A stretch of DNA of 64,000 nucleotides from a phage. The DNA lies in sequence record PZ049338.1. One strand, 5' to 3'. The notes beneath the pieces were generated by a model that was not told the origin of the DNA, ran no database searches, and was given only the letters and a program-made list of their open reading frames with translations. Of this stretch, positions 3,379-61,350 are shown piece after piece. How positions within the stretch are numbered: position 1 is the first letter of the stretch; the number at the start of each line of letters is the position of its first letter. The position numbers and the translations under genes were made by a program.

Positions 3379-3434
3379 GATAATATTCCTCGTTGTTTAC
3401 ATTGATTGAGTTATGAATCAGCACGATTCGATAA

Positions 3435-3466
3435 ATAGCCCACGCATCATGGGAATTATGGGCTAT
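3435..3466. other. inverted repeat (ATAGCCCA ... TGGGCTAT) just upstream of the first leftward gene
   Basis: 8-bp arms read directly; possible operator or RNA structure. Confidence 0.35.
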
Positions 3467-4238
3467 TCGAATCATCACTATTTGCGACTTGTCCAGTCGC
3501 CGGACTGATGCGCGCCTGATGGATACGGGGGCGAGTACCTTTTCACTTTACACATCAAATTTTACTCCCCGACTATCTGCGAATTAAAGATTAATCAGTG
3601 TTAATTGACGCAGTGACACGCCTCAAACGAGATAATCAACCATTGAAATCAATCAAGGCCGATTAAATAAAACTTGTCGTTGTTGTGCTACGTTGTCGCA
3701 TTCTTTATATAATCTTTCGGTAGTCTTAGTTGTGAGTAGGTAGAATTTTCATTCATTCGCTATCACTATTCGATTACGCGGCCTCTCGGCCTATCATCTT
3801 TTCAATCACTAGCCCACTTATTCTATTCAGTGAGATACCAAATTAACACTATACCGACGCTTAGATGTATAGATGATGTTCTAGTCTGGTTAAATCAGTC
3901 TTTACTTTGATGGCAACATGACACGTTGTGTAAACCGCTGGCACTTAAGCCGTCACGCATTGCGTTTTACGCCACCTTTTCAACCTTCCTTGCAAGCCTT
4001 GCGACTTTTAAGGTCGGGGCAAACTACTCCGGCTAAGTATTCAGTGTCTTATGTTTCCCACTGTTACCCGCTTTCGTCAATAAGCCGTAATTTAAAACCA
4101 TCCGTTAATCAGGTATGATTGCCACATTGTCGGGGGGAAGTATCCGACTGATGTTTACCGTTGGTTATACGGCGGGCTATTGCCCCTTAAGGTGCGGCCT
4201 ATGTGGTAGGCTGCCTTTGATGGGTAATGATTAACCTA

Positions 4239-4248
4239 TCCCATCTAT
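4239..4248 (+). promoter_or_regulatory. TCCCATCTAT motif copy 1
   Basis: exact 10-mer, repeated 4 times in the control region. Confidence 0.35.
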
Positions 4249-4269
4249 TTACTACTGGATAACTAATCT

Positions 4270-4292
4270 AGTTAATCCACATATATTAAGAG
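4270..4292 (-). promoter_or_regulatory. 23-bp repeated element, inverted copy (CTCTTAATATATGTGGATTAACT on minus strand)
   Basis: 1 mismatch to copies at 25156-25178 and 47913-47935. Confidence 0.4.
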
Positions 4293-4315
4293 ATAATCCC
4301 TTAATACGTCCTACT

Positions 4316-4351
4316 TAAAACATTCTAGGTTATCCCTTCCTACCTTGTCAA
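4316..4351 (-). promoter_or_regulatory. sigma70-type promoter P1 (leftward): -35 TTGACA 4351-4346, -10 TAGAAT 4327-4322, 18-nt spacer
   Basis: hexamers read directly; AT-rich upstream. Confidence 0.5.
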
Positions 4352-4426
4352 CCTTACTTAGAAAATTCTTTCTTCTGGTTGACTCACCTGATAGTTACTT
4401 GGCTATTCAGCTTCACTATCTGGTAT

Positions 4427-4463
4427 GTGGTAGATTATAGGTTTAACCTTTCTACCTTGTCAA
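4427..4463 (-). promoter_or_regulatory. sigma70-type promoter P2 (leftward): -35 TTGACA 4463-4458, -10 TATAAT 4439-4434, 18-nt spacer
   Basis: consensus hexamers; shares CTACCTTGTCAA context with P1; AT-rich UP-like region. Confidence 0.6.
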
Positions 4464-4683
4464 TAAGATATTTTAATTTATCTTGCTGACCTTTACTACC
4501 TATCAGGCTTTCGCGTTGTTGCTGCGTCGTCCTGATATGATTAACTATACGCAATCTTTTCAGATATGCAAACTAATATTTTAATTATTTTCTAACTTTC
4601 TTTCATCTCACTGATTTATAACGGATTATTTCTTGATATTCTTTCTTGATTCAGTGGATAAGATACGGGATACGGCTTATCTA

Positions 4684-4693
4684 TCCCATCTAT
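4684..4693 (+). promoter_or_regulatory. TCCCATCTAT motif copy 2
   Basis: exact 10-mer. Confidence 0.35.
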
Positions 4694-4894
4694 AGCGTCA
4701 CCTTTCCACCTGGACAAATTGGAACATCAATCACCTTATCTATTCCCTACCTTTCCAGCTCATAGATTCATGCCTGATTGATGATCTTTCTTGTGAGCTG
4801 GAAGCTAAGAGATAACACCGCATGAATTAAAACTAGATAAAGGGCACTAGATAGAAACATGCGGAACGTTATCCCATACGTCTTAATTGCTATT

Positions 4895-4932
4895 ACACGG
4901 AAGAAAGGAAAGGAAGAAAGGAAGAAAGGAAG
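4895..4932 (+). repeat. polypurine tract (GGAAGAAAGGAAAGGAAGAAAGGAAGAAAGGAAGA)
   Basis: read directly. Confidence 0.7.
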
Positions 4933-5040
4933 ATACACCATACGGATTAATGCTTATCAAACTATCGTCGGGTAACGGTGCAATGATTAAGATTGATGCG
5001 ACCAATGGTCGTGTTATGACCTGCGGTCATGCGTACCTAT

Positions 5041-5198
5041 TATCAAAGTCAACAATCAAACGATGATTATCAAAGACGATTATCAAACGATAACTATCAA
5101 AGACGATTATCAAACGATAACCATCAAAGGATAACTATCAAAGGATAACTATCAAAGGATAACTATCAAAGGATAACTATCAAAGGATAACTATCAAA
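5041..5198. repeat. tandem array, about 12 units of 13-14 bp with core TATCAAAG/C (5 perfect GGATAACTATCAAA units at 5129-5198)
   Basis: read directly; iteron-like. Confidence 0.85.
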
Positions 5199-5803
5199 GG
5201 CTGGCATTTTAAACACCGACGTTTTAGCCTCACAAAATAACGGGAAGAAATATAGCTCAGGATACTTACTATTAGTAAGAACATAACCATGCTGGTTATT
5301 ATTACCATGCTATCTATGCGATGGCTTATCATTAGGTAGCTAACTATAACATCGTGCATCATATTCCATTGGTATCATTAGATGACTAATCATGTGCGTG
5401 CATAGTATATCACTTGAGATAATAACGCATGAATACTATATCACTTCCCATTATCAGCGGAGGTATATTAATCCCGTGAACTAATAGCCAACTAATTACT
5501 TATGATATAGTTGCCAATGTTATTAATAGATGAGGTATGGTATCATTTGTATATTAATAATAAGCAAGCTATCTATTCACTGGATGCAATTACAGTATTG
5601 TGCTTCATCCAATAGGCTGTATAATCGTTGTTACATTGTTAACGGTATATGTGCCGACCCACTTCCCCCTTTTTAAAAGTTGTGTGCGCAGCTAGCCCCC
5701 TATACCACCGCGTGAGAGTATGAGAATGAGGATACCCTAACCAATTAATGGGTGAGAGTGATTGCCCGTGGGTATGACCTCCCATCAGACAGTACTCATG
5801 ACC

Positions 5804-5813
5804 TCCCATCTAT
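5804..5813 (+). promoter_or_regulatory. TCCCATCTAT motif copy 3 (GACCTCCCATC also at 5776-5786)
   Basis: exact 10-mer. Confidence 0.35.
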
Positions 5814-5872
5814 CAGTGTCAGTAGAGGCCGAAGGCCTTGGTCTTACCAAAGGTAAGTGACTTCCCATCTAT

Positions 5873-5882
5873 TTTCACTTTC
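5873..5882 (+). promoter_or_regulatory. TCCCATCTAT motif copy 4
   Basis: exact 10-mer. Confidence 0.35.
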
Positions 5883-5896
5883 TTTCAGTGTAAACA

Positions 5897-5920
5897 GTGT
5901 AAATCTGTAAGAAAATTGAA
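5897..5920 (+). promoter_or_regulatory. repeat TTCAGTGTAA-N-TCTGTAA copy 1 (candidate late promoter or packaging-related element)
   Basis: near-identical copy at 6168-6188; TAATCTGTAAG also at 12433-12443 upstream of capsid gene. Confidence 0.3.
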
Positions 5921-6167
5921 AATTTTGAACTAAAGTTCATGTACGAAGGAGATAGAGATTGATAAGAGATTCTTAAACAGTTTCTTATATATCTCCTTCT
6001 TATCCATTCTTATATATCCTCTCTTCTCTCCTCTATAAAAGCCCCTCTTATATTTAAAAATCCATAAACCAATTACGCTGAACAAGAAGAAAGTATAAAG
6101 GAGGTTATGACCTTCCATCTGATTGATAAGATGAGTACCCATCAACTATTTTAATCTTTTCAGTGTA

Positions 6168-6188
6168 AGTCTGTAATGTTTTCCATTT
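6168..6188 (+). promoter_or_regulatory. repeat TTCAGTGTAA-N-TCTGTAA copy 2
   Basis: see copy 1; about 135 bp upstream of first late gene. Confidence 0.3.
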
Positions 6189-6322
6189 ATCAGTGCTATA
6201 TGTAACTGTAGCATCTATAAGGTTTATGTAATTAATAAATAGATAGATGGGTGGATGGTGGGAACTACATTCGCTGGAAGCGAAACTATTGCTTCTGGCA
6301 ATTATTAATTGAAGGAGTGAAC

Positions 6323-25087: not shown

Positions 25088-25114
25088 AGGGGAATATTAA
25101 TTTCCCCTTTTTTC
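25088..25114 (+). terminator. intrinsic terminator (AGGGGAA tattaat TTCCCCT + TTTTTT)
   Basis: read directly; end of plus-strand late block. Confidence 0.7.
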
Positions 25115-25178: not shown

Positions 25179-25310
25179 CCACCCTATATAATAATAAAGA
25201 CTGAGGTTAATTATCAGTGAAATAATAACTAGAACCAGTGGAATCATCCAATTGTCAAGAAAATTAAGTATTGACAGTGCTATCTTGTTCATACTTTGTA
25301 ATCCACTCCT

Positions 25311-26030
25311 CTATCGTTGGGGGGGTTTAACTTTCTCGATAGCTGCTCTAAAGATTGCAGCACGGTGGAGTTTATCAGATATTTCCGGAGAACGTAACTT
25401 AGTCTTTGGAACAATAATTGAGACATAAGCACTATCAGCAGAATCGAAAGGATATTGACTAATTGCCCTAACATCTAAAGCCCTCAAACCATGAATCTTC
25501 ACAGGATATTTCTTTGTGATGTAAATGTGCTTGAAAACCTCGTCCATTCGCTCTCTCCAAGCCGGGGAGCGTATAGAACGGTGTCTACCAACACAACCTA
25601 TGGCTACACGTTCAAACCTCTCACACAGCCTCTCAAGACGTTCTAGAGACCCTTCGGAGTGCCATACAGGTACTGCCTTGCTTAGTAGGTGTTCTGGTAA
25701 CTTCGCTAGGAGCGCGTCGTTTTCTTCATCAGTGCCGCCAATAACGTCAGGTACAATAAACCACCCGATACGAGCATAAAGAGACTCAACCCACTTATAA
25801 TACTTATTCCAATGTTTATCCCAGTCAACTATCTCACCTTTACGATTCGATTTCATCCAAACAGAGAAAGCACCATTATCAAGAATCAAGTCACAATCTA
25901 ATTGAACTATACGCTTAATCTGGTCAGGGCGATGGAAAGAAACAAGGGCTCCACCTCCACGGTAGAGTGCCTTGATTAGCTCATCACCTTCACCACCCCA
26001 AATAGGGCCACCATGAAAGTGTATTGTCAT
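25311..26030 (-). CDS. hypothetical protein (239 aa), coupled to NADAR gene
   Basis: ORF track; 4-nt overlap with upstream gene. Confidence 0.55.
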   Translation of the reverse strand: MTIHFHGGPIWGGEGDELIKALYRGGGALVSFHRPDQIKRIVQLDCDLILDNGAFSVWMKSNRKGEIVDWDKHWNKYYKWVESLYARIGWFIVPDVIGGTDEENDALLAKLPEHLLSKAVPVWHSEGSLERLERLCERFERVAIGCVGRHRSIRSPAWRERMDEVFKHIYITKKYPVKIHGLRALDVRAISQYPFDSADSAYVSIIVPKTKLRSPEISDKLHRAAIFRAAIEKVKPPQR

Positions 26031-26503
26031 TTTCGTTCCTGTAATAGTTTACGGAGCCTATCAAACTCAGCAAGCATCCAACCATATTGAGGTTGGTTAA
26101 TTACTGTAGCATTATTAGGTTGTCCATAATAATAGTAATGCTCAAATGGCAATGTAGATTCAGAAAGCAAGATGCGGATATCCCGATGCTGTCTCAGTTT
26201 ACAACGAATAGCTGCAAGGATAACTTCCTGATGCTCAAGCTCCATATTACCTCTGGTGTCAATACGGAACTCTTTAACAGTTTTACCAATACGTTTGGAG
26301 CCATGACCAGATGCCAGTCTGAATTCATCAAACTGACAACCAGTTAAGTAGTAATGCCAGAAGCCTTCCATTGAACGGAATGAACCATATCCATCAACAA
26401 TGAAGTCTCTGTCGTACAAGTTAGAAAGCATTCTACCAAGTTCAGTGTGACCTCTTGAGTAGATATTGATGTGCTCAACACCATCCAATGTGGGGTTTAT
26501 CAA
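26027..26503 (-). CDS. NADAR-domain (YbiA-like) protein
   Basis: INIYSRG...LSNLY...FIVDGYGSFRSMEGFWHYY fits recalled NADAR pattern. Confidence 0.6.
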   Translation of the reverse strand: MINPTLDGVEHINIYSRGHTELGRMLSNLYDRDFIVDGYGSFRSMEGFWHYYLTGCQFDEFRLASGHGSKRIGKTVKEFRIDTRGNMELEHQEVILAAIRCKLRQHRDIRILLSESTLPFEHYYYYGQPNNATVINQPQYGWMLAEFDRLRKLLQERK

Positions 26504-26748
26504 AACGGAATATCCTCTTCTAACTGTCTACGAACCTCAGCCTCTGACATTTCAACACAGACAGGGCAATACCACTGATTGTTGAGAACCGTTCCCCAGC
26601 CGCTTGCTACGGCCCCTGTTGTGGTTCGTATGCCACATGGACAAGGGACTAAGCCCTCGTCGTCAAGAATAAGTTTAGATTTAGTTTTAGCCACCAAATA
26701 ACTCCTTCGCCTGCTGTTTAAACTTCGCAACTTCTTCCGGGTTGTCAC
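26500..26748 (-). CDS. small Zn-ribbon protein (82 aa, GTG start)
   Basis: CPC...CPVC cysteine pairs; start codon lies inside a TACTACTGTGAC-like motif. Confidence 0.4.
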   Translation of the reverse strand: MTTRKKLRSLNSRRRSYLVAKTKSKLILDDEGLVPCPCGIRTTTGAVASGWGTVLNNQWYCPVCVEMSEAEVRRQLEEDIPF

Positions 26749-27256
26749 AGTAGTTTAAGTCAGCTTCAAGTAATGCGTAATGGATAACTTTCAAAAGATC
26801 TTGAAGACCATTCTTATCTTTGTGCCGGTATGCATACTTAATCATATTGCACTGTTGAAAATTTAACTGAGGATTTGCGTTGTAGAATTCAATTGGCTGA
26901 ATACGCCCACTACCTGCTTGATAGTGAGAACCACCAACCATAGTGCTTAATGAATTACCCTTAGATGCCATCGCTAATTGCTCCGTGTGGTCATGTGAAT
27001 AGTCTACTGGGGCAGTTTTATGTCCAGTAAGCATTGGTACGCAAATGTGGACTTCATTACGCTTACCCACATCAATTGCCTTTCTTTCATTACTTAATTC
27101 ATACCCTGTCATTTGGGCTAGGTTATGAAGTTGGTCAGACACTATCTCATACATCTTTCTAAAAGCTTTGGCAGATAAGGATGCTTCCTCGTATTTTCGG
27201 CTTAATACCTGAAGTTCCGCCTCAGTCTCGAAGTGATTAATCATCGTCTTCATCAT
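26687..27256 (-). CDS. hypothetical protein (189 aa), C-terminal conserved-looking SHYQAG...IQPIEFY region
   Basis: ORF track; resemblance to a phage DUF recalled only vaguely. Confidence 0.5.
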   Translation of the reverse strand: MMKTMINHFETEAELQVLSRKYEEASLSAKAFRKMYEIVSDQLHNLAQMTGYELSNERKAIDVGKRNEVHICVPMLTGHKTAPVDYSHDHTEQLAMASKGNSLSTMVGGSHYQAGSGRIQPIEFYNANPQLNFQQCNMIKYAYRHKDKNGLQDLLKVIHYALLEADLNYCDNPEEVAKFKQQAKELFGG

Positions 27257-27342
27257 CCTCAGATTTCTTAATCATAATCATCATGCCCATTAATAGTAAC
27301 ATGAAAGCCAATACAAACAAATCACTAACAAATAAAGACGGG

Positions 27343-27687
27343 TTAGTAAACATAACAAGGTTTTCCTAATCGTTTCATCTCTGAAATCATATGCTTAGTC
27401 CCTTTGGACTCACCATCCCACATAATAATCGCTTGGTCGGCGTAGAGAGCCATCTTTGCATTGCGCAAGTGACCAGCCTTTTTACCATGTATGTGCCATT
27501 CGGCTGGGAATCGTTTAACTGGAGCACGACAACGAGCAGCTATACGCTCGCCATGTTGGTCTGGCCCTCGGGCTGTACCTGATACTACTTCGGTAATAGT
27601 CCTGCGGATATCCTTAGGAATCTGATTCCATTGAACCACAAACTCCTCCCAAGTTATATCACGACTTCCGGCAATGATAGTCTTCAT
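27343..27687 (-). CDS. SLOG / DUF2493-like nucleotide-binding protein
   Basis: GSRD...SGTARGPD...FPAEW...GKKAGHLRN...WDGESKGT fits recalled family pattern. Confidence 0.5.
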   Translation of the reverse strand: MKTIIAGSRDITWEEFVVQWNQIPKDIRRTITEVVSGTARGPDQHGERIAARCRAPVKRFPAEWHIHGKKAGHLRNAKMALYADQAIIMWDGESKGTKHMISEMKRLGKPCYVY

Positions 27688-31476: not shown

Positions 31477-32046
31477 TTAACTCTGGAAGTTTACTGATTC
31501 TCTGTCAATGTTAGCGACTAATTGACTTCGAATACGATGGAGACTGACGTAAATGTTATTTGAAGACATGCCATACTTATTGGCAACATCTTTAGTCGTG
31601 AGGTTCTTCAGGTAAACATCGGTGAACAATTCACGTTCTGATTCCTTAAGAGTCTCAAAAGCTCTCTGAACAAACGAGGAAGCTTCATCGGCTAGTAACT
31701 CACGAACAGGGTCAGTTAACCCATTATCATGGCATTCAAATTCGAGGACATTATCGTACATCTCCGTATCAACTCTGTCGAACTCTCGGCGTACATAACC
31801 ATAACGAACATTGTTCGCAATAGTACCTATAACACCGCCTAACTTATCCCACTGGATTCTGTCCCAATACTGCCAAATCCTTAGCAGAGTTTCTTGAGCC
31901 AAATCTTCAGCCAGATGGTAATCTTTTTCCATGTAGTAGAATTGTTTCTGGAGAGGTTTCCAGAACTCTTCGTACAACTCTTCAAAAGTATATGTTTCTC
32001 GTTTTGGAGTAGGGGCACTAATTCTCTTAGCCATCATACATTCCAT
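31477..32046 (-). CDS. ECF-type sigma factor (regions 2 and 4)
   Basis: DLAQETLLRIWQYWDRI (region 2-like) and LTTKDVANKYGMSSNNIYVSLHRIRSQL (region 4 HTH). Confidence 0.7.
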   Translation of the reverse strand: MECMMAKRISAPTPKRETYTFEELYEEFWKPLQKQFYYMEKDYHLAEDLAQETLLRIWQYWDRIQWDKLGGVIGTIANNVRYGYVRREFDRVDTEMYDNVLEFECHDNGLTDPVRELLADEASSFVQRAFETLKESERELFTDVYLKNLTTKDVANKYGMSSNNIYVSLHRIRSQLVANIDRESVNFQS

Positions 32047-40032: not shown

Positions 40033-40482
40033 TCAGCGACCAGAGCGTACAAAGTATGCCAGCTTGTCGATGGCAGCTACTAATTCTTGCAAGATGCTAA
40101 CAGTCACATCATCCTCTGTATCAAACAGACGAGCCACATGACCAGTTATTGTTTCCAGAGTTTCGACCATATCAGACAACATCTCTGAACTGTCGTAGCT
40201 GTCAACACCTTCACTGAACCAGCGAACTTCATGATAATACCCTGCCGTTGATTTGACAGGATGCTGTAGGCCACGTAGCCGCTCAGCAACAATATCAGAC
40301 CATTCATCAGCAACAGTATCAATATCTTCGAACAGTTTATGGAGACTTCCAAAGTTGGCTCCGGTTACGTTCCAATGATAATTCTCTGCCTTGATGGACA
40401 GTAATTTGAGGTTGGCAACCACTGGATTCAATGGGTGCAGATTATCTTCACCACTTTGACGTGACGGTCTTGGAGATAACAT
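40033..40482 (-). CDS. Dps-like ferritin-fold protein
   Basis: YHWNVTGANFGSLHKLFEDI and DIVAERLRGL align by eye with recalled E. coli Dps (HWNMRGANFIAVHEML, DTMAERAVQLGG). Confidence 0.6.
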   Translation of the reverse strand: MLSPRPSRQSGEDNLHPLNPVVANLKLLSIKAENYHWNVTGANFGSLHKLFEDIDTVADEWSDIVAERLRGLQHPVKSTAGYYHEVRWFSEGVDSYDSSEMLSDMVETLETITGHVARLFDTEDDVTVSILQELVAAIDKLAYFVRSGR

Positions 40483-41138
40483 TACTCAGTTTCCTTAATA
40501 GTTGCTTTCAAGGCCGACCAAGCGACCGGATAAAGGTCAGTCATGATTGCATCAAGTTGCTGTGCAAACAAACGAACCTCGTATTGAGCATGAGTGCTCG
40601 AACGTTGACGGTATACTTCAAACCAACCATACAGTGAACCAGTCCATACCCATTCTGTAACCATCCCTTGCGGGAGTACAAAGCGAGCCTGCTCTGGTGC
40701 AATGAACTTAATCAGCTTATCGTAGGCAAGTAATGCTGCTTCATATGCGTAATTATACAACACAAGAGCTTCATATTTCTTAACACCTTCAAGAAGTACA
40801 CCACCGCCATCATGCAAGTTATCAGGTCGTGCAAAGATTTCCTTAGGAATGAACACTTCGACATTACCATCTTTATATCGACGGCTCATTTCGTTCCAAG
40901 AAAATCCAACCTGATGCTTACCTAGCTGGCGAGCGATTGCGATTGGGGCTTTACAGCGAAGGGTCACTGTTGCGTGCCGGAATGGGGTTACATGACGTTC
41001 ACGAGCTAAGAACTTGACCAAGCGAACATCTCGCTCATTCAACTCACCTTCTCGTGTTACACCATAAGATACTCGTGCTGCGTTAACAACTGAAGTATCA
41101 TCACCCATTAAATCTACTAATTGCGCTTCAATAGTCAT
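40482..41138 (-). CDS. thyX: ThyX-like flavin-dependent thymidylate synthase homologue (signature appears divergent)
   Basis: ARQLGKHQVGFSWNEMSRRY resembles ThyX motif region, but canonical RHR seems replaced by KHQ. Confidence 0.6.
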   Translation of the reverse strand: MTIEAQLVDLMGDDTSVVNAARVSYGVTREGELNERDVRLVKFLARERHVTPFRHATVTLRCKAPIAIARQLGKHQVGFSWNEMSRRYKDGNVEVFIPKEIFARPDNLHDGGGVLLEGVKKYEALVLYNYAYEAALLAYDKLIKFIAPEQARFVLPQGMVTEWVWTGSLYGWFEVYRQRSSTHAQYEVRLFAQQLDAIMTDLYPVAWSALKATIKETE

Positions 41139-42719: not shown

Positions 42720-43477
42720 TATTCACCACCTTCGTTGTCTAATTCCATTGCTTTAACCACTGCCTTACAGAAGCCGCTTCGAACGATATCGTCAGAAGTA
42801 CCTTCAACAACAGCAGCATAGTCGCCCAGAGCGTGACGGTTGATAAAATCAATCGCCCAATCCAGACCATTTTCACCACCCATATCATTCTGCTCGGAAT
42901 CCCCGATACAGAACAGCTTAGAGTTCTCACCCAAGCGAGTCATGATTGAGTACATTTCATCAGGTTTGGTATTCTGAGATTCATCCACAATGACCACAGC
43001 GTTCTCGAAAGAACGACCACGAACATATTCCAGTGGTACGAATTCAATGTTACCAAGACCCATCTGGCACTCATAGAAGCCATGACCGTAACGACCTTTG
43101 ATTACATCTACCATAGGCATCAGATACGGTTCAAACTTCTCTTTCAGAGTGCCGGGCAGGAGACCAAGAGATTTACCCATACCAACCGAAGGTCGGCTCA
43201 GTACAATCTTCTGAATCTTGTTCTGCTTAAGCCAATCTGCGGCTTGACTCATGAGTACAAAAGTCTTACCGCAACCAGCAGGAGCGTCAACAAACACAAC
43301 CTGAGCTTCCATCATGCTAGTATGAAGTTCACGTTGGAACTCATTCTTAGGGATGATAGGCTTGATAATGTTTGCTGTCTCAAACTCACGACGAGCGTGT
43401 TGGCTATTACGACGAACAGTTTCTTCGCGCAGTGCTTCACGACGTAATTCACGACGACTAGGCTTAAGTTTCTTCAT
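42719..43477 (-). CDS. phoH: PhoH-like ATPase
   Basis: Walker A DAPAGCGKTF; overall PhoH-like pattern. Confidence 0.75.
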   Translation of the reverse strand: MKKLKPSRRELRREALREETVRRNSQHARREFETANIIKPIIPKNEFQRELHTSMMEAQVVFVDAPAGCGKTFVLMSQAADWLKQNKIQKIVLSRPSVGMGKSLGLLPGTLKEKFEPYLMPMVDVIKGRYGHGFYECQMGLGNIEFVPLEYVRGRSFENAVVIVDESQNTKPDEMYSIMTRLGENSKLFCIGDSEQNDMGGENGLDWAIDFINRHALGDYAAVVEGTSDDIVRSGFCKAVVKAMELDNEGGE

Positions 43478-44081
43478 TATTCAACTCCTCAGTGTGACCA
43501 GAGCCAGCATATGCTTGAGTAGCACCCTGCTGACCGTTGTAGTTACCTTTAACAGCGTAAGAGTCGTTACCAACGTCTTCGTGTTCAAAGAATACCATCT
43601 GACCAATGCGCATACCGGGTTTGATAAGGAGTCGGTGATACTTGTTCATATTCTTGAACTCCATAGTAAGCTGTGCGCCATGCCAACCGGCATCTGCCCA
43701 ACCTGCCATCATGTGTTCAAGGAAGCAACGAGCCACTGTAGAACGTAATACAAACTGACTGGAGATAGTATTTGGTAAGTTAAATGTCTCAACAGAGTGA
43801 GCCAAGAAACACTGACCCGGTTCGATAATCAAACCAGTCTCAGGGATAATCTGTTTGATGAACTTAGGAGATTGCTTTGCAGCAATATCAATCGGTTCAG
43901 AATGAACACCCGGAACAGCTTCAGCCATACCAGAAAGGTCTTGGTATTGCCATGCAGGGGCTTCGACCAGAATCTCGTTACCAATACGGATATCAATACT
44001 CGCTGAGTTTACGTTCTCATGCAGAGCGTCAATAACATTTTCATCAATCAGTTGGTGCAATCGTGTAGAAGAGAGTAACAT
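43464..44081 (-). CDS. dcd: dCTP deaminase
   Basis: SIDIRIGNE, RSTVARCFL, KPGMRIGQMVFFE, YNGQQGA align with recalled E. coli Dcd. Confidence 0.75.
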   Translation of the reverse strand: MLLSSTRLHQLIDENVIDALHENVNSASIDIRIGNEILVEAPAWQYQDLSGMAEAVPGVHSEPIDIAAKQSPKFIKQIIPETGLIIEPGQCFLAHSVETFNLPNTISSQFVLRSTVARCFLEHMMAGWADAGWHGAQLTMEFKNMNKYHRLLIKPGMRIGQMVFFEHEDVGNDSYAVKGNYNGQQGATQAYAGSGHTEELNNEET

Positions 44082-46635: not shown

Positions 46636-47310
46636 TTACAGAGTGTCATAGTAGTCTGCGCGATTATGCAGACACCAGTCACCCGACTCAACACGGTTAC
46701 TGTCGCCTTGGTCTTCATCAATGTGATAAATCCAAGCCTTTGCGAAGGAACCATCATCCAGTTGGATTTCAACCTGCGTACGGTTATAGAAACCATTCTC
46801 AGGGTCACAGGCACTGTACCCTTCCAGCATGTCGTATGCACCAGTCAGACCTTCCAGAGGTGCTTCAAATACATCAACAACAACCTGCTTGCCAGACTTG
46901 TTAGCCTTAAGGTTCACGGAAGGGAAGTAGGAGCCACCGTAGCGATATAAATCGAACTGGTCTACAGTCACACCCTTACTTACAAATTCACCGCCGCCAC
47001 GAGCGTTTACGTGGAAATTCTGCATGTTGCGACGCAGAGAGCCATAAGTTGCGATGAATACTTTACCGTCTGAAGGAATTACTAAGTTCTTTGACATTAC
47101 TTGTCCTGTTTTAGGTTGTAGATAATATTTAACTTCGACAAATCGCCATGTGTTCTGGAGGTTCTCTGCCATTTCTTTTGCTTCTGGGTAAGTTAAGCCA
47201 CAGCCAAGCTGATAACCTTCCTCACCCTTACTCATGCGACCAATCAGTAAATAACGAACTTCATGGTCACCTGTTAGTGGTTCTTTAATTGAGAGCTTCA
47301 TCTTATACAC
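46636..47310 (-). CDS. gamma-glutamyl cyclotransferase-like (AIG2/GGCT fold) domain protein
   Basis: FIATYGSLRR ... DMLEGY ... YNRTQV fits GGCT pattern. Confidence 0.55.
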   Translation of the reverse strand: MYKMKLSIKEPLTGDHEVRYLLIGRMSKGEEGYQLGCGLTYPEAKEMAENLQNTWRFVEVKYYLQPKTGQVMSKNLVIPSDGKVFIATYGSLRRNMQNFHVNARGGGEFVSKGVTVDQFDLYRYGGSYFPSVNLKANKSGKQVVVDVFEAPLEGLTGAYDMLEGYSACDPENGFYNRTQVEIQLDDGSFAKAWIYHIDEDQGDSNRVESGDWCLHNRADYYDTL

Positions 47311-48956: not shown

Positions 48957-49182
48957 TGAACGCTTGATGTTTTGCCAACTTCTTTTTCATGAGTTTGTTG
49001 TGGACTTGAAGAATATTAGAGACCTCTTTGGTGACAGTCACATGAGGTACAGCAACACCTTCAGCGAATTTTAGTCGCTTAAAGGGAGCGACAAGGTAAA
49101 TGAACTTAGCAACTTCAGTGTTGTTTCGTAAATTTACCTCTTCCCCATTAGTTAACTTATAATACACCCAGAGATTCCACAA
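48907..49182 (-). CDS. hypothetical protein (91 aa)
   Basis: ORF track; overlaps both neighbours. Confidence 0.4.
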   Translation of the reverse strand: MWNLWVYYKLTNGEEVNLRNNTEVAKFIYLVAPFKRLKFAEGVAVPHVTVTKEVSNILQVHNKLMKKKLAKHQAFIDSIVYGEDYDDESPF

Positions 49183-50344
49183 TAATTACATCGTTAGTTG
49201 TAACCATGATTTCCCAGCCAGCCAGTTCGAACATACCACCGGTGAATACACCTACGTTACGAACATCATCGTTACGCATCTGAACGATGTAGATGCCGTT
49301 TTCAACCAAGCGAATTGGTTCCTGACGCGTCACAGTAGCTGTTACCTCTGCTTCGATAGCGAAGTTTTCATCTTCAGCAGCTTCTACTGCATTGTCTGTG
49401 GCAGTCTGGTTCTGAGTTACAATGTCAACCAGTTCCTGAGCGGCAGCGTTACCACGAACGATTGCTGCTTGCAATTCACTGTTGGTGTTCACTTCATTTT
49501 GCAATTCAGCCAGAGCTTCATTAATATCTTCGACAGCATAAACTTCCTGACCATTGAAGATTGCCATTACGTTGGCTGCAAAACGTTCTGCGTTAGAACC
49601 GGTCATACCCGGAGCAGTGTTAACTTCCAGTACCCACGCTTCATCACGACGAGTAATGAGGTCAACTGCACCGTAGTCCAGACCCAGAGCAGCGATTGCT
49701 TTCAGGGCTTCACGCTTAGCTTCTTCATTAGGCTCAGCCTGCTGAGTTGCATAAATCCAACCAGTGTGGTGATTTCGGATAATATCACTGTATTCTGGCA
49801 GGTCAGCGTAACCGTTCACACGCTTCTTCTGCTGAATGTTAGTGATAACACCATTCATCACATGGATGCGGTATTCACGACGCTGAGCATTAACACCCTT
49901 GGTGTAAAGCTGTGCATTAGCCAGAGTACCTTGAACACCATCACCGAAAAGCTCTTCGTTGTTGGTTGCAATCACAATGCCTTCACCAGAGTGTCCAGAA
50001 AGGCGTGTACGGCAATAAACCAGATGACCTGCATCAAGCCATGACTGAGCTTCTTCACGGTCTGTAGTGTACTCTACAGTCTTCACATCATTGCGACGGA
50101 ATACTTCGAAAGAGATACGTTTGTTGGTCGCATTACCAACGTTGTACGGGTTGTTCAGGATGCGGGCATTGCCGATGATTTCGGCAGATAGGGAGGATGA
50201 ACCGTAGTTGACAATTAAGTCACCACTGCGACCACGGAAGCGAGAGCCATCAGTCAGGAGACGAAGTGCTCCCGGCATTAAAGGCATGAGTTCGTTCAGG
50301 GTGTCAGAAGGGCCATTTGAATATACACGTAAGCGAGGTGCCAT
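49157..50344 (-). CDS. ATP-grasp ligase
   Basis: C-terminal ATP-grasp signature WVLEVNTAPGMTGS. Confidence 0.7.
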   Translation of the reverse strand: MAPRLRVYSNGPSDTLNELMPLMPGALRLLTDGSRFRGRSGDLIVNYGSSSLSAEIIGNARILNNPYNVGNATNKRISFEVFRRNDVKTVEYTTDREEAQSWLDAGHLVYCRTRLSGHSGEGIVIATNNEELFGDGVQGTLANAQLYTKGVNAQRREYRIHVMNGVITNIQQKKRVNGYADLPEYSDIIRNHHTGWIYATQQAEPNEEAKREALKAIAALGLDYGAVDLITRRDEAWVLEVNTAPGMTGSNAERFAANVMAIFNGQEVYAVEDINEALAELQNEVNTNSELQAAIVRGNAAAQELVDIVTQNQTATDNAVEAAEDENFAIEAEVTATVTRQEPIRLVENGIYIVQMRNDDVRNVGVFTGGMFELAGWEIMVTTNDVIIVESLGVL

Positions 50345-54612: not shown

Positions 54613-55196
54613 TGTGGTAATTCCTTGGCTAAAAAGCGAACCAAGTGACGTGCTTCAGCAGCCACTTCGATAGCATCGTCAGAGAGGAACTTACCGATGC
54701 TCACATCCTTGTAGCGTAAGTCTGAATTGACACGCAGGAATACCCCTCCAATAACTTCAGGATACTCATTTTTGTTGAAGAACGCTTTGATGTTCTCCCA
54801 ACTAAAGCGGAAGTTGTTACAGATACGGCTGTGGGTTAACCCCTTCTTAGTTGAGCGATTTGCACGATAACTGACCCATACGAAGTTGTTTCCAATCTTC
54901 ACGAATGCAGGCTCAGGTAATTCTAGAACCAGATTCGGGTCAGTATGAGAGATGGATACGTTACGGTAATTACCATCGTCACCCATCGTCGTTCCGTGGA
55001 ATACCAGAGCATCTTCAGCTTCCTGAGAATACGCTGCACGGTCACGCTGTGCTCGCGTCATTTCACTGAAATCCAGAACAGTATTGTCATGGGTCACTGC
55101 GTCAATCTGGAAGGGCTGGACTTTACCAGCCTCATCCTTCAGACCAACGTAAGTCCCAGAGTAATACATTGAGAAATCGTCGGTAAGCATTAGCAA
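54579..55196 (-). CDS. hypothetical protein (205 aa) within amidoligase cluster
   Basis: ORF track; overlaps both neighbours. Confidence 0.5.
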   Translation of the reverse strand: MLMLTDDFSMYYSGTYVGLKDEAGKVQPFQIDAVTHDNTVLDFSEMTRAQRDRAAYSQEAEDALVFHGTTMGDDGNYRNVSISHTDPNLVLELPEPAFVKIGNNFVWVSYRANRSTKKGLTHSRICNNFRFSWENIKAFFNKNEYPEVIGGVFLRVNSDLRYKDVSIGKFLSDDAIEVAAEARHLVRFLAKELPQCQITVTTPQD

Positions 55197-55993
55197 ATCT
55201 CCATCACACGTACATATTCTTTAGCCAGAGCTTTGTCATTGTTGTTAATGACACGCTGTACTTCTTCCGGGTTGATGATTGATGCGATGCCACGGAAATC
55301 ACCACGCATCATAGCGAATGCTTTCTGAGCTTGTTCCCAAGCCCATTTGCGATTCTCTTTGTTCATAATCCAGAAGTTGGACATTACACGATATTCGATA
55401 CCGTATGGCTTGAAGCGGCAAGCACCAGCTTTACCATACAGTTCTTTTCGACGGTCATCACCGTCCAGCAGGAGGGCGGGCAGTCCCAGGAAGTAGTCAC
55501 ACATCACGCCGAGAACTTTCTGACTTTCGGACGTCACAGTAGTAACTGTATCGTAGCCAACGTGGATGTGACCACCTGCTGTACGAAGACCGGGGTCAGC
55601 AGCTTGAGGTTTAGGATTACGCATACCAGTCAGTGCGTTGTAATCAGGCTCACAGCCGAATACGAATGCATCTTTGTGGAAGCGTTCCAGTTCAGCAGCG
55701 GTGTAGATATGAGAACTGACATTCATTGCCAGTTCATGACCTACATAACCAACTGCTTCTTCACAGTATTTGATACCATCAACAATGTTCTTGTCGAAGG
55801 ATTCAAAATCACTATGCGGGTTGGTGTCGAACTCAACCAGCACGTTATCTTCCTGAATACGAACGTCTTCCGTGACTGCTTTCTTGTTGTACTTGTCCGC
55901 TCCAAGCAGACCTGAAACAGAACTGATAGCCCCTGTGCTCGAATCACGAGTGAACAACTCAGGGTCGGTAGCCAACAAAATAACATTAGACAT
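55190..55993 (-). CDS. glutamine-synthetase-fold carboxylate-amine ligase (GCS2/YbdK-like amidoligase), 267 aa
   Basis: GGHIHVGYD and YGIEYRVMS match recalled YbdK HVHVG and VEVRVMD. Confidence 0.6.
   Translation of the reverse strand: MSNVILLATDPELFTRDSSTGAISSVSGLLGADKYNKKAVTEDVRIQEDNVLVEFDTNPHSDFESFDKNIVDGIKYCEEAVGYVGHELAMNVSSHIYTAAELERFHKDAFVFGCEPDYNALTGMRNPKPQAADPGLRTAGGHIHVGYDTVTTVTSESQKVLGVMCDYFLGLPALLLDGDDRRKELYGKAGACRFKPYGIEYRVMSNFWIMNKENRKWAWEQAQKAFAMMRGDFRGIASIINPEEVQRVINNNDKALAKEYVRVMEIC
55533..55544 (-). other. strand-specific 12-mer, exact copy 4 (intragenic)
   Basis: exact 12-mer. Confidence 0.6.
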
Positions 55994-60597: not shown

Positions 60598-61350
60598 TTA
60601 CGACTGGATAATGCTTTCTTGAGCCAGTTCATCTTTCACCTGTTTAAGTGTAAATGTATTGTCGTCACAATCAATACCAATAGGGCCGATAATACGGTAT
60701 TTAGTATTGCGAGTTTCAACAAAGAAAGTACCAACCTTCTCAGAGATATTTACTACACGGGAGGTACTGATTGACAACCCATCACGGAAAGGGTGATTTC
60801 CGTGAGTGTGGGTATCGCTCCAGATTCGACCAGTCATGTACCAGTTGCTATCATTGGACTTGTAAATGATAGCAGATGACAGTTTGGCGTCGAATTGTGG
60901 AATTGGTAATGGGACATAACCTTCACGCAGTATCGGATTTTGTTCATCCGGCATTTGAGTGAAAGGCTTCATCTCAAACATTATTTCAAAGTCACGAGCC
61001 CATTGGCGAATCCGTTTTGGATTTAAACCATTGACACGTTTGAAGTAACCCTGCTGATGTTCAGCACTGATTAATTCATATGACAAATCCAAATCCGTAC
61101 GATGAACAGTGGAACACATCATCATAAGGTATTCATGACGACCACACCACACGTAAAGAAGATGTCCAATCTCCTCTTTAGTGAAATCTGTCGCTTCCGC
61201 CAGACGGTCAGTGATACCAAGCGCCAGTGGTTCAGGGAAACGCTTGTAGAAAAGGATTGGGAACTTCTCAATAAGTTCCGGCATACGACGCTTATAGAAA
61301 TCGTACTGAACAGGGGTAACAGGGCGAAGTTTTACGCGTTGAGTTGTCAT
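60598..61350 (-). CDS. ProQ/FinO-domain-like RNA-binding protein with C-terminal extension
   Basis: LIEKFPILFYKRFPEPLALGI...LLYVWCGRHEYL...DLD resembles recalled ProQ/FinO N-terminal pattern. Confidence 0.5.
   Translation of the reverse strand: MTTQRVKLRPVTPVQYDFYKRRMPELIEKFPILFYKRFPEPLALGITDRLAEATDFTKEEIGHLLYVWCGRHEYLMMMCSTVHRTDLDLSYELISAEHQQGYFKRVNGLNPKRIRQWARDFEIMFEMKPFTQMPDEQNPILREGYVPLPIPQFDAKLSSAIIYKSNDSNWYMTGRIWSDTHTHGNHPFRDGLSISTSRVVNISEKVGTFFVETRNTKYRIIGPIGIDCDDNTFTLKQVKDELAQESIIQS

Follow-up and report, generated by a model that had tools for sequence, protein, structure and literature searches.

Gene content and layout of the locus

We analysed a 64,000-nucleotide stretch of phage DNA (sequence record PZ049338.1, hereafter the window; all coordinates count from its first letter), in which five open reading frames (ORFs) between positions 25,311 and 27,687 encode a predicted SLOG protein, a putative nucleotide-kinase homologue, a small Zn-ribbon protein, a divergent NADAR-superfamily protein and a putative DNA-guanine transglycosylase of the DpdA type. 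Over this region the window shares ~96% identity with PKM.Hi.22.6, a Salmonella phage of the Grimontviridae (76.5 kb); Salmonella phage 7-11 is a more distant relative. Late genes run rightward to about 25 kb, and replication and nucleotide-metabolism genes form a long operon that is read leftward from 64 kb down to 25.3 kb. This is the early/middle operon of a Salmonella phage of the Grimontviridae, and the five ORFs, its last five genes, make up its distal end. An original prediction, made without database searches, had read them as one set of NAD/ADP-ribose-linked counter-defence genes. All five lie where it had placed them, with two corrections: all are on the minus strand, so that the order of transcription is SLOG, kinase homologue, Zn-ribbon, NADAR-like and DpdA, and the Zn-ribbon ORF is probably shorter than the mechanical call. 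The features, in that order, are:

27343..27687, minus strand: YAcAr/DUF2493-type SLOG protein (predicted), 114 amino acids (aa), stand-alone; sub-threshold Pfam match, phrog_289, PF10686-bearing homologues
26687..27256, minus strand: putative DUF3310 / T7 gp1.7-like (deoxy)nucleotide kinase homologue, 189 aa; Pfam DUF3310, phrog_26149
26500..26694, minus strand: small Zn-ribbon ORF (CxC...CxxC), probably 64 aa from GTG 26694; AAGGAG site, overlap with the kinase-homologue stop
26027..26503, minus strand: divergent NADAR-superfamily protein, 158 aa, phrog_652, TTG start; phrog match, AlphaFold2 (AF2)/Foldseek, profile comparisons
25311..26030, minus strand: predicted singleton DpdA, a DNA-guanine transglycosylase of the tRNA-guanine transglycosylase (TGT) family, 239 aa, C-terminally truncated; phrog_887, orthology to phage DpdA
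25264..25325, minus strand: frameshifted 3' end of dpdA, with the C7 run at 25319-25325, the out-of-frame tail TIEEWITKYEQDSTVNT and TAA at 25264-25266; DNA comparison with PKM.Hi.22.6, direct reading
25088..25108, no strand given: terminator-like hairpin with a T-run on the plus strand, between the convergent late (plus) and early (minus) units; terminator scan

Stop/start overlaps chain the last four genes. The TAA of the kinase homologue (26687-26689) overlaps the likely GTG start of the Zn-ribbon ORF at 26694, which is preceded by an AAGGAG site; the Zn-ribbon TGA and the NADAR-like TTG overlap as TTGA at 26500-26503; and the NADAR-like TGA and the dpdA ATG overlap as ATGA at 26027-26030, in agreement with the translational coupling that had been proposed for this last pair. 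Note that genes overlap at nearly every junction of the operon. The mechanically called Zn-ribbon ORF comprises 82 aa and extends to 26748; the AAGGAG site before GTG 26694 and the overlap with the kinase-homologue stop indicate that the protein probably has 64 aa instead. Homologues number 88 for the NADAR-like protein (2,161 representatives in a deep search), 1,691 for SLOG and 684 for the 239-aa protein, which makes these three genuine genes rather than chance ORFs.

The hairpin at 25088-25108 divides the early operon from the convergent lysis genes, and the phage 7-11 record annotates an equivalent bidirectional terminator. A sigma-70 promoter scan found sites no more numerous than in shuffled controls. 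Such a scan is of little value here, since the phage encodes its own sigma factor of the extracytoplasmic function (ECF) type, which makes sigma-70 scans uninformative for middle and late genes. This factor (Sigma70 r2 and r4) lies at 31477-32046, as in phiEco32 and 7-11.

The last gene of the operon probably encodes a singleton DpdA

The 239-aa protein, which the original prediction had left as unknown, matches phrog_887 (queuine tRNA-ribosyltransferase) at E = 6.6e-77 and is 82.5% identical to gp032, the DpdA of phage 7-11, and 41.8% identical to the DpdA of Pantoea phage MED16. On this orthology we read it as a singleton DpdA. Pfam TGT gave no match to it and no PDB entry matched at the sequence level, while Foldseek returned a generic TIM barrel only, which we counted as the barrel expected of the TGT type. 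Three aspartates, D51 (LDNGAF), D95 (PDV) and D199 (ADS), are invariant in 36 DpdA sequences and would correspond to D95, D130 and D256 of bacterial DpdA, a mapping drawn from motif order without superposition. By that mapping, the window protein would have its three invariant Asp in common with bacterial DpdA (S. Montevideo, PDB 7ui4; PMC10164549) and the TGTs. In other respects the phage type differs: it has 239-254 aa instead of 413, and lacks Ins8, DpdB or DpdC partners and the structural Zn site (the CxCxxC...H subdomain), no Cys being conserved.

In the window, the protein ends about 40 residues past D199 (55 in intact relatives). The dpdA gene carries a run of seven C at 25319-25325 where PKM.Hi.22.6 and relatives have five, and the resulting +2 frameshift, absent from 7-11 dpdA, replaces the conserved 17-residue C-terminal tail (PPT(I/V)xEW) with "QR" and a stop. 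The intact 254-aa version (P0209) occurs in 21 database sequences. The C7 run could be either a homopolymer sequencing error or a real lesion.

DpdA of this type occurs in 105 phage records. Phage 7-11 encodes only DpdA and carries the 7-deazaguanine modification dADG at 50 per 10^6 nucleotides (Hutinet et al, 2019; PMC6884629), and Pantoea phage MED16 has 354 modified bases per 10^6 nucleotides (PMC8306585); both source papers leave open the benefit and the base supply of DpdA-only modification. No preQ0 pathway gene (folE, queCDE) was found when 30 further early-region or unassigned window proteins were scanned against Pfam, and searches of the window for tRNAs and riboswitches found none. 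We considered the label "DpdA2" for this protein and rejected it, as Hutinet et al (2019) place 7-11 in the singleton gamma-proteobacterial DpdA cluster. The PKM.Hi.22.6 orthologue (OR053651, 4265-5029 of the extracted locus L001) is annotated as 'putative Co/Zn/Cd efflux system membrane fusion protein', which looks like a misannotation.

The 158-aa protein is a divergent member of the NADAR superfamily

The protein encoded immediately upstream of dpdA matches phrog_652 (function unknown) at E = 1.9e-35. Its AF2 model (pLDDT 96.6) has the YbiA-like alpha-helical core flanked by small beta-sheets, and the Foldseek PDB matches to it above a probability of 0.9 are all NADARs: YbiA 2b3w (E = 5e-4, TM 0.60), PnNADAR 8bau and DarG1-NADAR 8bat. 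A profile of 37 homologues searched against the PDB found the Phytophthora NADAR 8bau at E = 0.0012, with YbiA further down the list. When the family profile was aligned with single proteins by hhalign, T4 gp30.3 (AdfN-T4) came closest (94% probability, E = 1.3e-7), followed by E. coli YbiA (70%, E = 4e-5) and AdfN-Bas60 (11%, E = 2.8e-3). The NADAR assignment made earlier from the letters is thus borne out by fold and profile comparisons; fold and superfamily assignment hold, one catalytic-site feature (the Lys described below) is missing, and enzymatic activity is a prediction. Membership of AdfN-Bas60 in the phrog_652 family was considered and ruled out by the 11% hhalign probability and by its place in a separate clade of 725 records. 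The 88 homologues all lack a precomputed NADAR domain, NCBIfam and PADLOC found no NADAR, DarG, TGT or Dpd match in the five proteins, and GC and third-position GC (GC3) of the gene give no sign of recent acquisition.

The putative catalytic residues are conserved in part. E46 is invariant in both 37 and 61 family sequences and aligns with the catalytic Glu of T4, YbiA, Bas60 and 8bau (PnNADAR E43, C7 NADAR E88, AdfN-T4 E36). The third catalytic residue is Glu in NADARs of the YbiA type, Asp in those of the DarG1 type and His in T4-type phage NADARs (PMC11543638). The family probably has His here: H122 is invariant in 61 multidomain family proteins and nearly invariant in the alignment A1, and in MAFFT it aligns with the His of the T4 'LKH', the hhalign alignments ending before it. 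Seven residues after the Glu, Leu53 occupies the position of a conserved Lys (K50 in PnNADAR, K95 in E. coli C7 NADAR, K43 in AdfN-T4), a column that varies within the family (L/K/R/S/Q), and the equivalents of Trp89 and Arg93 are not conserved in the profile alignment.

AdfN-T4 (Johannesman et al, 2025; PMC11825919) is, like the window protein, a small stand-alone phage NADAR, encoded in an early operon near DNA ligase, with the LSNF motif, the catalytic Glu (E36, equivalent to E46) and, probably, His where other NADARs have their third acidic residue. The two differ in that identity is about 21%, K43 at E+7 in T4 is Leu53 here, and invariant HIN and STLPFxHYY motifs are peculiar to the window family, which also has frequent SLOG and DUF4326 fusions. 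With DarG1, the NADAR antitoxin of DarTG1, and E. coli YbiA, the window protein shares the fold (8bat, 2b3w) and the catalytic Glu; unlike them it probably has His and not Asp or Glu as third catalytic residue, goes undetected by Pfam NADAR, and has neither a DarT neighbour nor the N-terminal DNA-binding extension of DarG1.

NADAR-like and SLOG domains are recurrently fused

The 114-aa protein matches phrog_289 (E = 3.3e-26) and falls just short of Pfam YAcAr (PF10686; E = 1.2e-5, 25.4 bits against a gathering cut-off of 28.2), and PF10686 is present in nearly all of the best 120 of its 1,691 homologues, which are 50-60% identical to it. The Gly-rich loops after strands 1 and 3 (AGSR and SGxAxGxD) are present as IIAGSRD and SGTARGPD, and both motifs recur in the consensus of the SLOG domains that are fused to NADAR-like domains. 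We therefore take the protein, by its homologues and motifs, as a member of the YAcAr/DUF2493 family of the SLOG superfamily, in line with the original prediction; it is 79% identical to gp037 of phage 7-11. The profile searches proposed there as a check had a divided outcome: direct Pfam searches missed the NADAR-like protein and left YAcAr below threshold, whereas the family-profile comparisons and the PF10686 of the homologues were supportive.

A HMMER scan identified 2,161 cluster representatives (at 50% identity) of the NADAR-like family, which is found in 568 phage records. Among the sampled matches, the carriers are mostly jumbo myoviruses, Ackermannviridae, Vequintavirinae and Chaseviridae, and T5-like phages are absent. 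When 61 multidomain representatives were scanned with Pfam, DUF4326 was present in 27, a YAcAr SLOG in 25 and Macro in 3; by BLASTP, 32 of the 61 have a SLOG domain directly C-terminal to the NADAR-like domain, 35-48% identical to the 114-aa protein. Taken for both domains of these 32 fusions, identity to the window proteins spans 31-42% for the NADAR-like and 29-48% for the SLOG domain. Such recurrent fusion, a strong Rosetta-stone signal, links the NADAR-like and SLOG proteins functionally and bears out their pairing in the original prediction. The two window genes can thus be read, on these domain architectures, as the separate halves of a NADAR-SLOG fusion that is widespread in phages and often includes DUF4326. 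No DUF4326 was found in the window with a purpose-built hidden Markov model (positive control 8e-25), the window encodes neither a DUF4326 nor a Macro partner, and a phage ADP-ribosyltransferase or NAD-salvage partner, sought among the early genes, was not found.

The association of SLOG, NADAR, Macro and DUF4326 in phages, together with a role against ADP-ribose-based immunity, has been predicted computationally (Iyer, Burroughs, Anantharaman and Aravind, 2022; PMC9503650). Their DUF4326-NADAR-SLOG (and Macro) polyproteins have the same NADAR clade, the YAcAr-type SLOG and the same predicted role. In the window, by contrast, the domains are separate genes 840 nucleotides apart, with the kinase homologue and the Zn-ribbon ORF between them, and the carrier is a 76-kb phage of non-myovirus type, whereas the family is concentrated in large myoviruses.

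Homologues in Vequintavirinae lie among RNA ligase, polynucleotide kinase (PNK), Sir2, NAMPT-like and phosphoribosyl-pyrophosphate (PRPP)-synthetase-like genes. In Erwinia phage Hena1 (locus L004) and in locus L009 the NADAR-like homologue is 59-60% identical to that of the window and the gene order is phosphoesterase, RNA ligase, PNK, NADAR-like, Sir2 and DNA ligase; in locus L010, Metallophos and AAA_33 kinase genes are near it. The NAMPT-like and PRPP-synthetase-like genes, a NARP1-type NAD reconstitution pair, adjoin the Vequintavirinae NADAR-like block.

The kinase homologue and the Zn-ribbon ORF

The 189-aa protein scores 34.9 bits with Pfam DUF3310, over the cut-off of 24, and matches phrog_26149 ('deoxynucleoside monophosphate kinase', E = 7.9e-46) and phrog_236 (E = 6.3e-18). 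Its C-terminal half is 69% identical to gp033 of phage 7-11, and we assign it, from these family matches, as a T7 gp1.7-like nucleotide-kinase homologue.

The Zn-ribbon ORF has no family match in Pfam, PHROG or PADLOC scans. Homologues were found in only 8 phage records, every one from the Grimontviridae, and each time adjoin the start of dpdA; the ORF (ending in ...PF and the stop) is unannotated in 7-11 (L002, 6628-6786) and in PKM.Hi.22.6 (L001, 5502-5747). It appears to be the ancestral, translationally coupled upstream neighbour of dpdA, and might assist DpdA, which has no Zn site of its own.

The NADAR-like gene is an optional cassette upstream of dpdA

Comparison with phage 7-11 indicates how the locus was assembled. 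In both phages dpdA is the last gene before the convergent lysis genes, follows the same Zn-ribbon and DUF3310 genes and comes without a phage preQ0 pathway. The 7-11 gene string is kinase homologue, Zn-ribbon and dpdA, with no NADAR-like gene, whereas the window has this gene between Zn-ribbon and dpdA and lacks 7-11 gp031 downstream. The Zn-ribbon/dpdA junction of 7-11 has the same TTTTGA that joins the Zn-ribbon ORF to the NADAR-like gene in the window, so the NADAR-like ORF looks like a clean insertion.

The same position varies in two metagenomic contigs, L008 and L014, which have identical DpdA and 95% identical flanks and differ exactly in the slot upstream of dpdA. In L008 (3275-4097) it holds a dGTP_diPhyd_N (dGTP-diphosphohydrolase-N) protein and a NADAR-like protein, and in L014 (9560-9994) a 55-aa ORF and a short DUF3310 gene. 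The two upstream slot genes have a common C-terminal tail (...AFExFKAQAKELVG). From these gene orders the slot is best read as a recombination hot spot, a cassette-exchange site for accessory genes, and the genes swapped there are probably anti-defence genes. Among the matches listed, the NADAR-like family and the DpdA type of the window overlap only in two PKM phages. The NADAR-like gene thus appears to be an optional cassette and not a conserved partner of DpdA, and its coupling to dpdA reflects tight packing at a cassette-exchange site instead of a conserved functional pair.

A 188-aa protein encoded two genes upstream of the NADAR-like slot in these contigs (L008 2630-3196, L014 8915-9481) has GSR...SGAAAGADSAFEEGA motifs and a sub-threshold DprA match (E = 2e-4), and no BLASTP similarity to the window SLOG. 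It is possibly another member of the SLOG superfamily, in which case L008 and L014 would mirror the gene order of the window.

Overall, the presence and absence of these genes across related phages suggest that the locus packs together two or three separate functions. The single five-gene module of the original prediction does not stand, given that the coupled partner is predicted to be DpdA, the 189-aa protein a nucleotide-kinase homologue and the NADAR-like gene an optional cassette. The identity of DpdA and the mosaic, non-modular make-up of the locus are the main correction to it.

Proposed functions and alternatives

From the gene structures, folds, family relationships, fusions and cassette distribution described above, we infer the following activities and targets. 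The best overall explanation, which we hold tentatively and at somewhat less than even chances, combines independent DpdA modification, a NADAR-SLOG anti-ADP-ribose system and a gp1.7-like kinase. DpdA would swap a small fraction of DNA guanines for a host-made 7-deazaguanine (dADG in 7-11) in a phage without its own preQ0 pathway. The NADAR-like and SLOG proteins together would form an ADP-ribose N-glycosidase system acting against host immunity based on NAD or ADP-ribose, with the SLOG protein as nucleotide-binding or nucleotide-processing partner of the NADAR-like enzyme. The preferred target would be phage DNA that carries ADP-ribosyl-guanine, the product of DarT1-type toxins and the substrate of T4 AdfN; we favour it because AdfN-T4 is the closest characterised relative. 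Published experiments with the NADARs of T4, Bas32 and Bas60 showed that they take ADP-ribose off DNA guanine and overcome DarTG1 (PMC11825919, PMC11543638). The DUF3310 protein would act as a gp1.7-like nucleotide kinase. The counter-defence role suggested by the original prediction accordingly draws support from AdfN-T4 as nearest relative and from the SLOG fusions and is weakened by the loss of the conserved Lys; as it repeats a published prediction (PMC9503650), it is not new.

Several results weigh against this explanation. The 158-aa protein has no match to Pfam NADAR (PF08719 / DUF1768) at E ≤ 0.1 and is missed by PADLOC, its TM-scores to NADAR structures are only 0.53-0.60, and the hhalign E-values are those of single pairwise comparisons. 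Leu53 stands where characterised NADARs have a Lys that touches ADP-ribose and takes part in catalysis, and the phage NADARs assayed experimentally are all from clades other than phrog_652 (AdfN-Bas60 being in another clade). The fusions with SLOG, Macro and phosphatase-like DUF4326 are no less compatible with processing a soluble molecule than with repairing DNA, and 7-11 retains SLOG without a NADAR-like gene, so the pair is not obligate. As for DpdA, the frameshift removes its conserved tail, so that the window protein may be impaired, or the base call may be wrong.

What the NADAR-like and SLOG proteins act on could therefore be different. They might degrade soluble ADP-ribose signals or toxins (isomers of cyclic ADP-ribose (cADPR), His-ADP-ribose, ADP-ribose phosphates) of TIR/Thoeris-like, SIR2 and RES systems, and not repair DNA. 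We regard this as unlikely, yet as the most serious competitor, because SLOG, Macro and DUF4326 would be apt partners for processing a small molecule and the protein has lost the Lys that contacts the pyrophosphate, a loss that could mean a different substrate. The recurrent fusions with SLOG, Macro and DUF4326 (a proposed phosphatase) suggest the stepwise breakdown of one small molecule, as Iyer et al (2022; PMC9503650) explicitly predict, and YpsA-like SLOG domains sense cADPR in Thoeris (PMC9503650, PMC11204291). However, all phage NADARs assayed so far act on guanine-ADP-ribose in DNA (PMC11825919, PMC11125620), AdfN-T4 is the nearest characterised homologue, the window has no DUF4326 or Macro partner, and cleavage of cADPR isomers by a NADAR would be without biochemical precedent. 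The lost Lys also bears on whether the protein is an enzyme at all: with Leu53 at the position of K50 in PnNADAR, K95 in C7 NADAR and K43 in AdfN-T4, and the Trp89 and Arg93 equivalents not conserved, it could be catalytically dead, or a mere binder such as a sponge for an ADP-ribose-derived ligand. This seems quite improbable, as the invariance of E46 and H122 across diverse members argues for retained catalysis, K43A impairs AdfN-T4 only partly (PMC11825919), and the Lys position is taken by Leu or some other residue in roughly half of the aligned family members, so that its loss is a tolerated state.

The genomic surroundings of the homologues point elsewhere. Given the neighbours in Vequintavirinae (RNA ligase, PNK and Sir2 in Hena1 and L009, NAMPT, PRPP-synthetase-like; Metallophos and AAA_33 in L010), the NADAR-like protein might serve RNA repair or NAD turnover and clear ADP-ribose-type by-products without a direct anti-defence target, a role proposed for NADAR by De Souza and Aravind, as cited in PMC9503650 and PMC11543638. 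We think this improbable: no RNA ligase, PNK or NAD-salvage gene was found around the locus or among the 40 window proteins scanned, and phage RNA repair is itself counter-defence, so that the proposal overlaps with an anti-ADP-ribose role. The surroundings in the window itself would suggest a tie to DpdA, which would explain the ATGA coupling: the NADAR-like enzyme, as an N-glycosidase, would free the 7-deazaguanine base from a nucleoside or nucleotide for insertion, or strip guanine adducts (ADP-ribose) before the exchange. Two lineages with NADAR-like proteins of only 64% identity both keep the 4-nucleotide overlap with dpdA, NADARs of the YbiA type act as N-glycosidases on small, GTP-derived intermediates (PMC11543638), and singleton-DpdA phages have no base supply of their own, the origin of dADG being unexplained (PMC6884629, PMC8306585); a literature search found no paper connecting NADAR and DpdA. 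Nevertheless, the 568 phage records of the NADAR-like family are overwhelmingly without the window DpdA type, 7-11 modifies its DNA without a NADAR-like gene (PMC6884629), and in L014 another cassette fills the slot upstream of an identical DpdA. Since nearly all operon junctions are overlapped, the coupling alone is weak evidence, and we give this tie the least credence of all. The chance is just as slight that NADAR and DpdA form a pair on DNA guanine in which the coupled Zn-ribbon substitutes in trans for the missing Zn subdomain of DpdA. RNA repair, the tie to DpdA and the binder all rank as weaker than the degradation of soluble signals.

Other genes of the window

A phiEco32-like set at 46636-47310, 49157-50344 and 55190-55993 encodes GGACT (gamma-glutamyl cyclotransferase-like), ATP-grasp (RimK-like) and COOH-NH2 ligase type 2 proteins, which suggests phage-encoded peptide or metabolite ligation chemistry. 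At 40033-41138 and 43464-44081, a ferritin-like gene immediately precedes ThyX, a dCTP-deaminase-like gene and PhoH are close by, and the group is a pyrimidine-centred nucleotide-metabolism block. A 250-aa protein with a ProQ/FinO RNA-chaperone domain (Pfam E = 3.6e-9) is encoded at 60598-61350. Between two divergent gene blocks, the stretch 3400-6200 has few ORFs, low GC (about 0.38), no tRNA and no Rfam match; it may be a regulatory, origin or genome-end region.

Significance

All gene kinds found here are already known, and the findings leave current concepts unchanged. The locus corrects annotations, namely the dpdA label of PKM.Hi.22.6 and the missing Zn-ribbon ORF. If the NADAR-DpdA-Zn-ribbon set did act together, this would go some way towards explaining where 'dpdA-only' phages get their modification and how they install it. 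Almost all phage records label the phrog_652 family 'hypothetical'; our results allow it to be read as a NADAR clade nearest to T4 AdfN. A 76-kb Salmonella phage with NADAR and SLOG as two small separate genes is a convenient test system, which could tell the cleaning of ADP-ribosylated DNA from the destruction of ADP-ribose signals, and reveal what the SLOG partner contributes.

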